From Candidatus Brennerbacteria bacterium (GTDB lineage: Bacteria > Patescibacteriota > Minisyncoccia > UBA6257 > GWB1-50-10): DNA of 64,000 bases. Position 1 is the first letter of the stretch. Each line of letters starts with the position of its first letter. The stretch lies in assembly GCA_016183535.1 (NCBI GenBank), contig JACPEK010000001.1, forward strand, positions 15,519-79,518. The letters run 5' to 3'. This document shows, in pieces, positions 42,735 through 46,164 of the stretch. Under the pieces are notes generated by a model. The model searched no databases, was not told the origin of the DNA, and was given only the letters and a program-made list of their open reading frames with translations. The position numbers were made by a program, and so were the translations under genes.

Positions 42735-43325
42735 GTGAGAGAAGAAGAAATTGATCGGCAGTTATCATCTCTCATTCAAAAAGTTTCTTTGCCAAAAGAC
42801 TGGGCGGAAGAATTATTGAAAATGGCAGAAAAAGATTTCAAAAATTCCGCCCAGTCTAATTCTGCCTTTGTAGAAGAAACGAAAAAAGATATTTTGAAAA
42901 TTAATAGTAAGTTGGAGCGACTTCTCAATGGCTATCTCGACCAAGTGATTGAACAAGATATTTATCGTGTTGAAAAAGGAAAATTGTTATTTACCAAGAA
43001 GTCCCTTGAAGCCAAAATATCTTCTCTTTTCCAAAAGCAGAATAATTGGCTCGAACCATTCCAAAATTGGATAAAAGACGCACAAAACATAAGCGGAATT
43101 GCACGGGATATAGACCTTTTTGCGAAAAAGGTCTGTGCCAAAGAAATCTTTGGCTCGAACCTGCTTCTTGGCGAAAAAACAGTGCGCCCCGCCGAAGGCG
43201 GTGCTGGATTCCGAACCCAGAATTCATTGGCGAAAACAGGCGAAACAGCGTGGGCGGCGCTTTGCGCCGCCCACTCCTTAGTTCGTTCAGAACCGATTGG
43301 TTCCGTTTTGGTGCAGTATCCTTGA
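42735..43325 (+). pseudogene. 5'-truncated large serine recombinase (C-terminal ~195 aa only)
   Basis: Aligns with residues ~315-504 of the 44615 recombinase (LIQKVSL / FLQKVSL, KLERLLNGYLDQVI / KLEKLLDAYLGEVI, NWLEPF / FWLEPA, KEIFGSNL / KTIGSNHV); no catalytic domain. Confidence 0.6.
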
Positions 43326-43399
43326 ATTAGTTCGAACGCATTTCGGCGAAAAAATTCCCCCGCGAAAAAATTCAGAATTTGCGGCGAAGCCGCACCGAT
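43309..43399 (+). repeat. 91-bp inverted repeat, left copy (att-like P arm with TGGTGC core at 43309-43314)
   Basis: Exact reverse complement of 44388-44478. Confidence 0.8.
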
Positions 43400-43499
43400 A
43401 ACAATTTCCAATTCTTCTTTGGCGGCAATTCAAGAATTCGCGAAGCGAATACCTACAATGTATCAATTTATATATTAAATTTCAATGGCACAATTCTTA

Positions 43500-43543
43500 A
43501 AAAGAGAAAACGAAAGAGGCCTTTTGATAAAGCAGTGGCCTCT
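43500..43543 (-). terminator. intrinsic terminator for the membrane-protein gene (AGAGGCC..GGCCTCT hairpin, U-tract on minus strand)
   Basis: Hairpin 43515-43543 with TTCGTTTTCTCTTTT on the minus strand after it. Confidence 0.45.
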
Positions 43544-43580
43544 TAACTGCTGTTGTTTTGGTTTGAGGTGTGTTTCATAC

Positions 43581-44138
43581 TCAACCCCTCCGCCGCAACG
43601 TGAGAGCGAACACCGTCAGGTTGAACGCCGTACTTGTCACGGGCTGAATCCAGTTTGTGACATTGCCCCAGTTGCTAACCGCAACGACAGTCAACGCGAA
43701 CCCGAGAGAGAATGTTCCCCAGGTAAGATTGCTTTCGTTGCGGGGATTGTCCCAGGCGTTCCTGATCGTTGGGATTCCCGCGACCATGAGCGACACCAGA
43801 GAAGCAACCTGCGCGGCGGCCGGTCCAGAAATCTTCCAAACCAGCATGCCAGCGGTAGCCAAGAGGAGACACATCGTGTCGAACTTTGTCCACTTCTTCT
43901 CTCCGTAGATGAGAAGCAGAATAGTCGCTACGATTGTTCCGCCAGCCGCCGCAAGCATTCCCCACGGGTCTGTCTTTCCTGCTGCAATCTGACTTGTGAG
44001 GGTGATGACGAGCATCACCGACCACATGCTCCAGGTGGCCAAGTTCGGCTTGGCCGTTTTCCGGAGAATTGCGACATACAGCGGGATGTGAGCGGCGAGA
44101 ACGATGTAAGCCCCAATGATACCAAGATGCTCTTGCAT
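43581..44138 (-). CDS. hypothetical polytopic membrane protein (5-6 TM), cargo between the inverted repeats
   Basis: 185-aa ORF; SD GGAGGTG 6 nt before ATG; own promoter upstream. Confidence 0.55.
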   Translation of the reverse strand: MQEHLGIIGAYIVLAAHIPLYVAILRKTAKPNLATWSMWSVMLVITLTSQIAAGKTDPWGMLAAAGGTIVATILLLIYGEKKWTKFDTMCLLLATAGMLVWKISGPAAAQVASLVSLMVAGIPTIRNAWDNPRNESNLTWGTFSLGFALTVVAVSNWGNVTNWIQPVTSTAFNLTVFALTLRRRG

Positions 44139-44221
44139 TCAGCACCTCCATTTTTCTCAATGTACACACTACGATTACCTCGTAGCAGGTTATTGGCAGA
44201 ATGCCAATTTTTGCTACTTTT

Positions 44222-44251
44222 AGCATAGCATATATGAAGTTATGCTGTCAA
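44222..44251 (-). promoter_or_regulatory. promoter TTGACA-18-TATGCT (minus strand) for the membrane-protein gene
   Basis: -35 = revcomp of 44246-44251, -10 = revcomp of 44222-44227. Confidence 0.45.
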
Positions 44252-44387
44252 GCACAACAAAAAATCAGCATCTCTGCTGTTTCTTGCCTAAAATCTTATG
44301 AATTCAATGATTAAAAATTTTTCTTTTCTTCTTTCTCCTAAAACATGGTTCGAGCCGATTGTTTTTCCGGGCTCTTTGGCGGTTTTG

Positions 44388-44478
44388 ATCGGTGCGGCTT
44401 CGCCGCAAATTCTGAATTTTTTCGCGGGGGAATTTTTTCGCCGAAATGCGTTCGAACTAATTCAAGGATACTGCACCA
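44388..44478 (-). repeat. 91-bp inverted repeat, right copy (P arm; core GCACCA at 44473-44478)
   Basis: Exact reverse complement of 43309-43399. Confidence 0.8.
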
Positions 44479-44570
44479 TTGAGGAAATTGCAAGTTTTGA
44501 AGGTTTGCCTCGCTTCGCTCGGCGACTAATTCGTATTGGATTTTCGGGGCAAAAACGAATTGGCGATTTT
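44473..44570 (-). repeat. 98-bp inverted copy of the recombinase 3' end (revcomp of 45978-46075), sharing the core with the 91-bp repeat
   Basis: Identical by inspection; forms an attP-like site (recombinase arm - core - P arm) on the minus strand 45 bp upstream of the recombinase start. Confidence 0.75.
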
Positions 44571-44614
44571 GAAAGAAGAAAAGAAAAATTTTTAATTCTT
44601 AACCCAACAAAAAT

Positions 44615-46129
44615 ATGAAATATATACTTTACGCTCGAAAGAGCACAGAAGAAGATGACCGACAAGTTCTCTCGATTGAAGCGCAGCTCGTAGAGCTGCA
44701 AGAGTATGCCGCCAAAGAAAAATTGGAAATTGTTGCCTCGCTTTGCGAGGCCAAAACCGCCAAAGAGCCCGGCCGAATGAAATTCGCAGAAATGTTGTCA
44801 TTACTCGAAAAAGGCAAGGCCGATGGAATAATCGCATGGCATCCCGACAGATTGGCAAGAAATAGCGTTGATGGTGGAAAGATAATCCATTTCGTAGATC
44901 GCGGCTTGATCCGCTCCCTTAAATTTCCAACATTCTGGTTTGAAGCGACACCCCAAGGTTTGTTTATGTTAAATATCGCTTTCGGGCAATCAAAATATTT
45001 TGTAGATAATTTGCGAGAGAATGTAAAAAGAGGTTTAAGGCAAAAAATACGAAATGGCGTTTGGCCAGGCTGGGCTCCGGTGGGCTATCTCAACAATCCA
45101 AAAACGAGAGGAGTAGATATTGACCCTGAAAAATCTCGGTTGGTAAAGAAAGTTTTTGAACTCTATGCCACCGGAAATTATCCGCTTCATTCTCTCGCAA
45201 ATTGGTGCGTCAAACACAATCTCAAAGGCAACAAGAACAACAAAATATCTATCAGCAGTTTGCAGAAAATTCTACAAAATATTTTTTACATCGGGTTGAT
45301 GAAATTTAAGGGAGAGGTTTTTGAAGGAACTCACGAGCCGTTAATCTCAAAGAAACTTTTTGATTTGTGCCAAGAAGTGATGGTAAAACGCGGCAAAAAG
45401 AAAGATATTCGCAAACATCATTTTGCTTTTCTTGGCTTACTCAAATGTGCTTCGTGCGGTTGTTCCATTACCGCCGAAATCCAAAAAGGCCATCACTATT
45501 ACCACTGCACAAAAAAGAAAGGGCCTTGCCAAGAAAAGCACTTTTTACGAGAAGAGATACTAACCGAACAGATAAAAACCTTTCTTCAGAAAGTTTCTTT
45601 GTCGAGCCAAGACACCGATAAAATTTTAGTGGAATTGCAGAAAGATGAAGAGCGAGCAAAAGAGGAAGCTAAAATGATTGTTCAAAATCTCAAAGCAGAA
45701 TTAACCGAGGTTGAAGCCAAGCTCGAAAAATTACTAGACGCATATCTTGGCGAGGTTATTTCTGCTGAAGATTACAAAGCGAGGAAAGATAAACTGCTCA
45801 TCAAAAAGGTTGAGCTTGGCGAGAAAATTAGAGATTTTGAACAGAAAGGTCTGTTTTGGCTCGAACCGGCTCGTGAGTTCGTTTTATCCTTGAATCAAGC
45901 CGCGGATTTAGTTAAGAGTGAAAACAAAGAGGAAATGACAACATTTCTGAAAACAATCGGCTCGAACCATGTTTTAGAAAATCGCCAATTCGTTTTTGCC
46001 CCGAAAATCCAATACGAATTAGTCGCCGAGCGAAGCGAGGCAAACCTTCAAAACTTGCAATTTCCTCAATGGTGCGCGGGAGAGGATTCGAACCTCCAAG
46101 CCCTTGCGGGCGCTACCACCTCAAGGTAG
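44615..46129 (+). CDS. large serine recombinase (resolvase catalytic domain, recombinase domain, zinc ribbon, coiled coil)
   Basis: 504-aa ORF; ..YARKSTEEDD..SIEAQ.., ..CASCGCSITAEIQKGHHYYHCTKK..; last 20 codons are the antisense of tRNA-Leu. Confidence 0.85.
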   Translation: MKYILYARKSTEEDDRQVLSIEAQLVELQEYAAKEKLEIVASLCEAKTAKEPGRMKFAEMLSLLEKGKADGIIAWHPDRLARNSVDGGKIIHFVDRGLIRSLKFPTFWFEATPQGLFMLNIAFGQSKYFVDNLRENVKRGLRQKIRNGVWPGWAPVGYLNNPKTRGVDIDPEKSRLVKKVFELYATGNYPLHSLANWCVKHNLKGNKNNKISISSLQKILQNIFYIGLMKFKGEVFEGTHEPLISKKLFDLCQEVMVKRGKKKDIRKHHFAFLGLLKCASCGCSITAEIQKGHHYYHCTKKKGPCQEKHFLREEILTEQIKTFLQKVSLSSQDTDKILVELQKDEERAKEEAKMIVQNLKAELTEVEAKLEKLLDAYLGEVISAEDYKARKDKLLIKKVELGEKIRDFEQKGLFWLEPAREFVLSLNQAADLVKSENKEEMTTFLKTIGSNHVLENRQFVFAPKIQYELVAERSEANLQNLQFPQWCAGEDSNLQALAGATTSR

Positions 46130-46156
46130 TGCGTCTGCCAGTTTCGCCACCCGCGC
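46070..46156 (-). tRNA. tRNA-Leu (anticodon GAG), long variable arm
   Basis: Minus-strand cloverleaf GCGCGGG..anticodon loop TTGAGGT..TTCGAAT..CCCGCGC-A-CCA; CCA encoded. Confidence 0.85.
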
Positions 46157-46164
46157 TTATTTTG

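Follow-up and report, generated by a model that had tools for sequence, protein, structure and literature searches.

The window analysed here comprises 64,000 nucleotides (nt) of a Candidatus Brennerbacteria bacterium (assembly GCA_016183535.1, contig JACPEK010000001.1, positions 15,519 to 79,518 of the forward strand; coordinates below count from the first letter of this stretch). Within it, a tRNA-Leu gene is joined at its 3′ end to the gene rec of a large serine recombinase (LSR), which forms part of an intact element of 2767 bp (43309..46075, plus strand) that we call P-type after one of its repeated arms. The parts of the element follow the order site 1, cargo, site 2, rec and site 3, and its limits were taken from the repeat structure that appears when the window is compared with itself. 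We consider it very probable that the recombinase encoded in 43309-46075 moves this segment as a compact integrative element. Its features are given below, where attP and attB stand for the attachment sites of element and host, and attL and attR for the two junctions left by integration.

43309..43314, plus strand: core TGGTGC of site 1, attR-like, joining the end of an older recombinase fragment (the left flank, X) to the P arm
43315..43401, plus strand: P arm, direct copy, with a TAA stop at 43399-43401 and TCGAAC at positions 24-29 of the numbering that starts at the core
43400..43427, plus strand: short block, reverse complement of rec nt 93-120 (44707-44734)
43581..44138, minus strand: cargo gene, an open reading frame (ORF) of 185 aa
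44310..44335, plus strand: block a, inverted partner of block a′ (44571-44596), 26 nt, 100% complementary, the two enclosing site 2
44338..44365, plus strand: short block, reverse complement of rec nt 1336-1363
44367..44387, plus strand: short block, reverse complement of rec nt 138-158
44388..44570, minus strand: site 2, a full inverted attP-like copy ending 45 nt upstream of the rec ATG and made of a P arm (44388-44472), a core (44473-44478) and the last 92 nt of rec (44479-44570)
44571..44596, plus strand: block a′, directly upstream of rec (-44 to -19)
44615..46129, plus strand: rec, large serine recombinase gene, 504 aa as found, with its conserved part at 44615-46069
45978..46069, plus strand: R arm, the last 92 nt of the conserved rec ORF and the left half of site 3
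46070..46075, plus strand: core TGGTGC of site 3, equal to tRNA-Leu nt 71-76 (GCACCA), attL-like
46070..46156, minus strand: intact tRNA-Leu(GAG), the target or B arm, with TCGAAC at core positions 19-24

Two perfect inverted repeats tie these parts together. Read on the opposite strand, 44473-44570 repeats 45978-46075 (98 nt, 100% identity) and 44388-44478 repeats 43309-43399 (91 nt, 100%), and the two overlap in the hexamer 44473-44478. Site 1 is therefore composed of X, core and P arm, site 2 (read from 44478 on the minus strand) of R arm, core and P arm, and site 3 of R arm, core and tRNA. The initial annotation of this DNA had proposed a family of serine recombinase elements with TGGTGC as a common core, and the hexamer is indeed found at the four places it cited (43309-43314, 46070-46075 and 16429-16434 on the plus strand, 44473-44478 on the minus strand); the self-comparison also bears out that the repeats meet at a shared core. 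TGGTGC as such occurs 40 times in the window, against 18.8 expected from shuffled sequences and mostly far from any tRNA or element, an excess that is probably a codon or composition effect, so that the evidential value of the hexamer lies in its placement at repeat boundaries and not in its mere occurrence. The tRNA-Leu(GAG) was called by ARAGORN and scored 48.9 bits with the Rfam tRNA model. The G+C content of the element, mostly 37-45% (55% in the cargo bin), contrasts with 50-62% in the flanks and points to a composition foreign to them; the whole array of elements at this tRNA ranges over 37-50%. As a side observation, the first 15 nt of the tRNA-Leu (GCGCGGGTGGCGAAA, minus strand; 46142-46156) are repeated exactly at 46290-46304, 148 nt upstream, followed by a stretch that resembles a decayed 5′ half of tRNA-Leu; the repeat is also present in one related locus (L083), and could be a pseudo-tRNA or the scar of another type of integration.

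The protein Rec matches the Pfam families PF00239 Resolvase (1.1e-21, residues 4-150), PF07508 Recombinase (4.8e-15, residues 171-258) and PF13408 Zn_ribbon_recom (5e-07, residues 272-324), a domain set that identifies it as an LSR. It starts with MKYILYARKSTEED, and since the Resolvase profile aligns from its position 2, the alignment places the putative catalytic serine, the likely nucleophile, near the N-terminus. The large C-terminal Recombinase and zinc-ribbon domains distinguish Rec from the small IS607-family enzymes, which have an N-terminal DNA-binding domain. Its best matches among proteins of known structure (PDB) are distant ones, to the SPbeta integrase (8e-07) and the A118 integrase (4e-06), and Rec is a divergent member of the group. 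More than 7800 homologues with 74-92% identity were found, almost all of them, where named, in Patescibacteria; a scan of viral contigs returned just two truncated relatives, and no virus structural or replication genes are present in the element, which holds rec and one small cargo gene.

For comparison, we gathered 82 loci from species-representative genomes and 80 from metagenomes, referred to below by L-numbers. The proposal that this recombinase acts at tRNA 3′ ends holds well across them: in 107 of about 150 loci the homology to Rec breaks off precisely where a tRNA gene on the opposite strand has its 3′ end. The initial annotation had named tRNA-Leu and tRNA-Gly as targets, and both are, within a much wider range. 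In the genome set alone the targets include tRNAs for Leu (four anticodons), Lys, Arg (five anticodons), Met, Tyr, Gly, Ile, Asn, Phe, Ala, Gln and Val; judged from these junctions, the target appears to be tRNA 3′ ends broadly, of at least 12 amino-acid specificities. Besides the window, 57 loci show a site 1 to the left of site 3, delimiting elements mostly of 2.3-3.2 kb (with outliers of 3.9 and 4.4 kb), in which a conserved backbone of about 1.77 kb runs from block a (44308 in the window) to the core. The left flanks X are unrelated between loci; in three cases (L020, L089, L139) X is the 5′ end of a neighbouring tRNA gene, which places the element exactly between tandem tRNA genes. Several copies may share a genome, as in L003, L009 and L025, all from one metagenome-assembled genome (MAG). 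Varied tRNAs, unrelated left flanks and several copies in one MAG show the same element at different chromosomal sites, as expected of an integrative mobile element. Some MAGs carrying the element (L003, L007, L009, L010, L018 and others) are titled “uncultured Gammaproteobacteria” or “Candidatus Saccharibacteria” in third-party assemblies, labels that look unreliable, since the genes of these MAGs and the element family itself indicate Patescibacteria in general.

Read in the frame of rec, the P arm stays open across loci for 21-33 codons (median 29-33), against 4-6 in control frames; its peptide is conserved (WCSILELVRTHF..PPRKFGKAAEPHR), its indels keep the frame, and the copies at site 1 end in a stop. 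The entropy at the three codon positions is 0.70/0.34/0.79, the second positions being the most conserved. In the window, the core codons TGG TGC (43309-43314) and the P arm encode the native C-terminal tail WCSILELVRTHFGEKIPPRKNSEFAAKPHR. The P arm is thus coding and attP lies inside rec, some 30 codons before its native stop, and integration would move these last ~30 codons to the far end of the element and endow rec with codons antisense to the tRNA. The earlier view of a gene that terminates inside the tRNA thus describes the integrated form correctly, the last 60 nt of the rec ORF (19 codons and the stop) being antisense to tRNA-Leu, but misses the native ending of about 30 codons, which is the P arm at the other end. 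Among the top 120 homologous proteins, at least 80 carry the tRNA-antisense tail signature (...WCxGEDSNL...), most of the remainder end a few codons inside the tRNA, about 6-7 have tails encoded by a different, Q-type arm, and the P tail is absent from all 120. The purifying selection visible on the tail implies that the gene with R and P arms joined must be expressed at some stage. The Q arm, which belongs to a second LSR family, encodes a homologous tail in its own frame (VSLLYQARTFFQNR at 41553, and VELYNSARTFFERN at 14886 in the frame of the truncated recombinase gene rec′ described below). A degenerate tRNA was also considered as the identity of the P arm and rejected, ARAGORN and Rfam detecting the tRNA-Leu only.

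The extent of the core was delimited by comparing the three junctions locus by locus. Of 80 loci, 59 have sites 2 and 3 identical up to core position 6, another 16 up to 7-8 and 4 up to 4-5; in 76 of the 80, the core of site 2 matches that of the tRNA over 6-8 nt. From the other side, identity between sites 1 and 2 begins at position 1 (19 loci), 2 (4), 3 (24), 4 (4) or 5 (2). These limits leave positions 3/4 to 6 (GTGC), that is, tRNA nt 71-74, as the segment common to all three junctions, and core positions 1-2 at site 3 (the CA of CCA) derive from the element; position 3 is still G in ~80% of the cases where X is devoid of TGG. The hexamer first put forward as the common core therefore shrinks usually to 4 nt (positions 3-6), and a short shared core stands. 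This shared core of 4-6 nt is compatible with a 2-bp crossover, with 3-6 conflicting loci for each candidate position of the dinucleotide; going by these junctions, the crossover is most likely at the GT or the TG of TGGTGC, with the discriminator nucleotide included. The core also changes with the tRNA, being TGGTGC for tRNAs with A73/C72/G71, TGGTGG(AC) for Ala, TGGCTC for Asn and TGGCTGC for Gln (G73/A72), with CT replacing TG in the last two, and related P-arm subtypes are found with TG or CT cores alike, as the rule of a central dinucleotide predicts.

The geometry of the half-sites is consistent with this picture. In consensus over 56 loci, TCGAAC, which corresponds to the T-loop on the opposite strand, occupies positions 19-24 in the tRNA arms and 24-29 in the P arms. 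For the LI integrase, the motif of the zinc-ribbon domain (ZD) lies 5 bp nearer the centre in attB than in attP (Rutherford et al., PMC3783163). The offset of TCGAAC matches this published spacing, so that the P arm looks like an attP-type and the tRNA like an attB-type half-site; the 5-bp rule holds on one side of each site only, as the R arm and X are both without the motif. If Rec recognises the universal T-loop, its wide range of tRNA targets would be accounted for. Separately, a motif resembling the tRNA T-arm on the opposite strand, GGCTCGAACC, recurs at 45855-45871, 45952-45970, 43041-43059 and 43145-43163, inside the 3′ part of both recombinase genes, where it encodes the conserved WLEP and GSN (the tRNA arm in the same frame reads DSN). 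These repeats could be accessory binding sites or old coding sequence derived from a tRNA.

Site 2 places an inverted attP copy just upstream of rec, so that cargo and rec are both bracketed by inverted repeats. What had been noted as an inverted copy of the recombinase end is present as described, yet it is a conserved part of the element and not a one-off: a near-perfect site 2 with a P-type arm occurs in 83 (+2 variants) of the 102 loci that have enough sequence, or ~85%, and the layout of three sites is likewise found in about 85% of those loci whose flanks are long enough. The blocks upstream of rec are short (21-98 nt), abutting, 100% identical to sequence elsewhere and all inverted, and contigs often break there, which is what a chimera of assembly or amplification would look like over 44310-44596. 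The same patchwork, however, recurs block by block across independent studies and lineages (L002, L004, L013, L123 and an alignment of 16 loci), a recurrence in independent assemblies that identifies it as a conserved part of the element rather than an artefact or a single rearrangement, and which leaves to the chimera a next to negligible probability. Blocks a and a′ co-vary, with an identity of 0.78 to their own partner versus 0.36 to those of other loci, and the R copies, like the P copies, are identical within an element and different between elements; such within-element identity and covariation indicate ongoing homogenisation or selection for pairing. The block at 43400-43427 is conserved in L002, L004 and L013, and is on average 92% identical to the corresponding segment of its own rec. 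In a wider set of 57 loci, the three blocks of 21-28 nt (43400-43427, 44338-44365 and 44367-44387) show 89-93% identity to their own rec.

Flipped arrangements of the element are rare in the assemblies (~5 of 150 loci). In L120, rec is followed by a joined R and P arm, the patchwork blocks, the cargo and an inverted P arm. Two further loci are mirror isomers, L087 with an inverted Q arm, rec and tRNA, and L097 with an inverted tRNA, rec and Q arm. In L061 (4799-6595) and L073 (4794-6506), a tRNA-Ala abuts the inverted R arm precisely upstream of rec, and the downstream arm of L061 is of the tRNA type, a fragment from the 3′ half of a tRNA, after which comes a complete tRNA-Ala with no encoded CCA; the two loci point to a chromosomal rearrangement between tRNA genes through the internal attP. 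Because the junctions of these isomers need an exchange at, or a flipping about, site 2, we regard this site as a live attP. It is probably also, to judge from its position before rec, an operator bound by Rec. As an additional observation, in L097 (1873-5253) the arm that follows rec continues for at least 3.3 kb with genes for a VanY/D-Ala-D-Ala carboxypeptidase and a Kelch-repeat protein, a stretch bounded by an inverted repeat of 123 nt at the contig end and possibly a cargo of much larger size, or else a piece of the chromosome captured through an inversion.

Isomers such as L120, or L087 versus L097, and the alternating orientation of the three sites are also what a resident DNA-inversion system would produce, invertase- or shufflon-like, flipping rec and cargo beside a tRNA without being mobile, and some databases do name relatives of Rec “DNA invertase Pin-like”. 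We hold this very improbable, as the 1.77-kb backbone sits at no fewer than 12 kinds of tRNA, with unrelated contexts, left flanks and cargo, in several copies per genome, in tandem arrays and in decayed copies, with foreign composition, and the enzyme is a full large serine recombinase and not a small invertase. A different division of the locus would see two modules, in which the rec unit between its 98-bp terminal inverted repeats (inverted R arm, rec, R arm; 44473-46075) is a transposon resembling an insertion sequence and travelling by itself from one tRNA end to another, and the cargo between its P arms a separate passenger cassette with inverted ends of its own. Perfect inverted repeats delimit both modules, the core lying at the outer tips, the rec unit of L061, L073 and L097 has a tRNA directly upstream and no P arm in the available sequence, and the partner arm is Q instead of P in L087 and L097. 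Against this stands the coding content of the P arm, a conserved tail of Rec with its stop, by which it belongs to the rec gene; in the large majority of loci where the flank is long enough, rec comes with both P arms, direct and inverted. A circle of the rec unit alone would moreover have a palindromic joint of R arms, requiring a self-complementary dinucleotide, which the CT cores at tRNA-Asn and tRNA-Gln forbid. The two-module division thus seems to us improbable, if less so than resident inversion.

With a single integrative element as the preferred explanation, the following cycle can be proposed. In a free circle, the rec ORF would cross attP, composed of R arm, short core and P arm, and the P arm would supply the last ~30 residues and the stop. 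Rec would recombine attP with the 3′ terminus of a tRNA gene, the exchange falling within nt 71-74 including the discriminator and the tRNA side being recognised through its universal T-loop and acceptor sequence. The tRNA would stay intact, the P arm would pass to the far end as site 1, and rec would become fused to tRNA-antisense codons at site 3. Repeated insertion at one tRNA end would stack elements, the newest next to the tRNA, and site 2, acting as a live second attP, would account for the rare flipped isomers, where the native tail is returned to rec.

More tentatively, the inverted attP and the other complementary pairs (a and a′, the three rec-complementary blocks, and the direct and inverted P and R arms) could together be a designed fold or switch and not debris, an idea to which we give a minor share of probability and which comes in two versions. 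A flip of rec between sites 2 and 3 may restore the native P-encoded tail while the element is integrated; Rec would then toggle between a tRNA-tailed and a native-tailed form that differ in activity, and the control of directionality would reside in the DNA and not in a separate protein. Alternatively, a single-stranded copy may fold so that site 2, as a splint, joins both ends of the element into a nicked duplex attP, which would permit circularisation after DNA uptake without recombination of attL with attR, and would explain the perfect identity of the repeats.

Several observations weigh against the reading of the locus as an LSR element integrating at tRNA ends. The R and P arms show no dyad symmetry, no attP centre rises above background, and the chromosomal half-site downstream of the tRNA (X) is not conserved, features that are unusual for serine integrases. 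Every candidate for the crossover dinucleotide conflicts with some loci, positions 4-5 with 3, 5-6 with 4 and 3-4 with 6, and the agreement between P arm and tRNA at positions 5-8 exceeds what a 2-bp crossover needs. Across the elements, no directionality factor or other conserved ORF accompanies rec; such a factor is possibly encoded elsewhere, or the enzyme may be bidirectional. The comparative data are metagenome assemblies throughout, and 27 of 151 contigs begin within 150 nt upstream of the rec ATG, inside site 2, an assembly break that is consistent with multi-copy elements or mixed orientations in populations. Among the sequences compared, which are assemblies and not reads, there was no empty target site and no circular junction, the small contigs having no terminal overlap. 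Look-ups of exact proteins for the rec of the window, for a sigma factor and for P0121, a protein 100% identical to rec′, yielded no empty-site relative, and that for L9 only a contig of 1.35 kb which ends inside tRNA-Leu (L083), again with no empty site. Relatives with tRNA-Leu and without recombinase had been taken in the initial annotation as evidence contrary to its proposal; they are the empty sites to be expected, and would therefore support integration, not refute it.

Older remains of the same kind of event lie to the left of the P-type element and at a second tRNA gene of the window:

41524..41552, plus strand: oldest recombinase-end fragment (..TCCGAACAAGTTACTAC), abutting the Q-arm junction
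41553..43314, plus strand: decayed Q-type element, with TGGTGT and a Q arm (41553 to ~41610) at its start and a truncated recombinase at its end
42735..43308, plus strand: rec′, the C-terminal 191 codons of a member of the second LSR family (ORF 42735-43325)
14886..16434, plus strand: decayed Q-type element at tRNA-Gly(CCC), with a Q-type arm (TGGTGGAATTATATAACTCTGCTCGAAC...), cargo, an LSR end and the core 16429-16434
15041-16024, minus strand: cargo of the tRNA-Gly element, a gene for an SDH-type ClpP-like protease, accompanied by an ORF of 77 aa
16291-16428: LSR remnant of the tRNA-Gly element, the last ~45 codons
16429..16502, minus strand: intact tRNA-Gly(CCC), called by ARAGORN

The array at tRNA-Leu (41553-46075, with the LSR-end relic from 41524) holds three generations of elements, the intact one beside the tRNA. 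The sequence of the oldest fragment (41524-41552) is the same as the left flank of site 1 in L027, and the Q arm at 41553, found also by the scan for arms, aligns with those of L097, L153, L145, L090, L013, L004 and L087. The rec′ fragment is 34% identical to residues 305-423 of Rec, and has a 100% match annotated in a Candidatus Brennerbacteria MAG; a relative with 94% identity abuts tRNA-Val directly in L166 (1-741), and fragment and relative together reveal a second LSR family with the same geometry. The best 120 of 300 rec′ homologues are all truncated, with lengths of 156-334 aa; among them this lineage is represented only by C-terminal fragments beside tRNAs, and it may consist of fossils of an older wave or of non-autonomous derivatives moved in trans. 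Junctions of R and Q arms occur in about a dozen loci, and an LSR relic is found at X in 3 of 51. At the second tRNA, what had been called a tRNA-Gly relic is indeed the site of a relic, with the difference that the tRNA-Gly is intact and what has decayed is the recombinase, whose tail remains at 16291-16428 and has 27 nt identical to 43138-43164. Just upstream of rec′, a GC-rich hairpin (42641-42670, GGAGCGGGCGC...GCGCCCGCTCC) is followed by T-rich sequence, and looks like a terminator closing the cargo of the old element (ORFs 42105-42590).

The segment between the inverted P arms, mostly of 540-1420 nt and in one case of 2124, is different in almost every element. Pfam matches of its products across the family include a radical-SAM enzyme, two methyltransferases, an FAD oxidoreductase, an APH-type kinase, DUF5654 and a phasin-like protein; the other cargo proteins have no Pfam match and, by eye, the look of membrane or secreted proteins. 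The cargo of the window (185 aa), also without a Pfam match, has by eye the look of a multi-pass membrane protein, and is preceded by a promoter-like site at 44251-44222 (minus strand). With one or two accessory genes in its variable segment, the family acts as a single-gene shuttle among Patescibacteria. Three further candidates were discarded: a conserved cargo promoter, as the site at 44251-44222 is not kept beyond close relatives; shared cargo families, the sole large cluster being an artefact of the edge of the conserved backbone; and an ORF of 106 aa over the rec ATG (44298-44618) as accessory gene or directionality factor, since at least 90 of its codons are open in only 38% of loci.

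These elements matter in more than one respect. Large serine integrases are valued for genome engineering, where each normally needs its own rare target, and the T-loop and acceptor end common to essentially all tRNA genes would be a ready-made target in every genome; specificity seems partly set by the dinucleotide of the discriminator region, which could be reprogrammed. Patescibacteria have tiny genomes and few recognised mobile elements, and thousands of elements, each with a different gene, may be a major route of gene flow among them. The attP within a gene, the swap of its tail and the spare inverted site raise the question of how direction is controlled, with no separate factor found.

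Among known systems, the LSRs of phages (phiC31, Bxb1, A118/LI, SPbeta) share with Rec the domain set, the logic of attP and attB, a very short common core and a half-site motif 5 bp nearer the centre on the host side (PMC3783163). The present elements differ in using many tRNA 3′ ends, in their size of ~2.3-3.2 kb, in the lack of phage genes, in an attP inside the integrase ORF, in the inverted second attP, in that no directionality factor was found and in a host half-site that is not conserved outside the tRNA. A survey of integrative elements placed 14 of its 297 large serine integrases at tRNA or tmRNA genes, and called such a use unreported and in need of proof (PMC7192596); the loci gathered here give more than 100 clear cases.

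Our elements resemble Tn4451 and Tn5397, compared by description, as small non-phage elements with an LSR. These TnpX/TndX-type transposons have a circular form, no separate directionality factor and a 2-bp crossover; their targets are not tRNA ends but GA dinucleotides within loosely defined sites. To our knowledge, they have no long inverted copies of their joint, and their recombinase gene does not span it. The filamentous phage phiRSM targets a tRNA-Ser gene. The same survey cites its type of serine recombinase as using the 3′ end of a tRNA gene as attB (PMC7192596). That system involves a small resolvase-like enzyme, a filamentous phage and one tRNA, whereas here a large enzyme, many tRNAs and no phage are involved.

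A parallel to the divided gene is found in another superfamily, with other chemistry. The archaeal tyrosine integrases of the SSV1 type carry attP in the integrase ORF, and integration into a tRNA gene splits this gene near its 5′ part. Both systems have attP inside the ORF, a tRNA target and a portion of the gene separated by integration; those of the SSV1 type have a long segment of identity with the tRNA and no internal spare site. In the inverted sites that bracket segments in Hin, Gin and Cin, the R64 shufflon and the FLP repeats of the yeast 2-micron plasmid, our elements find another likeness, as a flip would exchange a 3′ coding end, here that of rec itself; those systems are not integrative, and the gene they switch is not the recombinase. 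Tycheposons of Prochlorococcus, 27 of 937 of which carry a large serine recombinase (bioRxiv 10.1101/2020.12.28.424599), are likewise cargo elements that accumulate next to tRNA genes. They use mostly tyrosine recombinases, are larger and often have replication genes, and their description mentions neither an inverted attP nor a recombinase gene that runs on into the tRNA. Our literature searches, with subscription journals outside their reach, found no description of this element family, and an earlier one is possible. As an element of the serine-integrase kind, it is distinguished by a pan-tRNA 3′-end target, an attP in its own gene, an inverted second attP, a single-gene cargo and a very wide spread among Patescibacteria.

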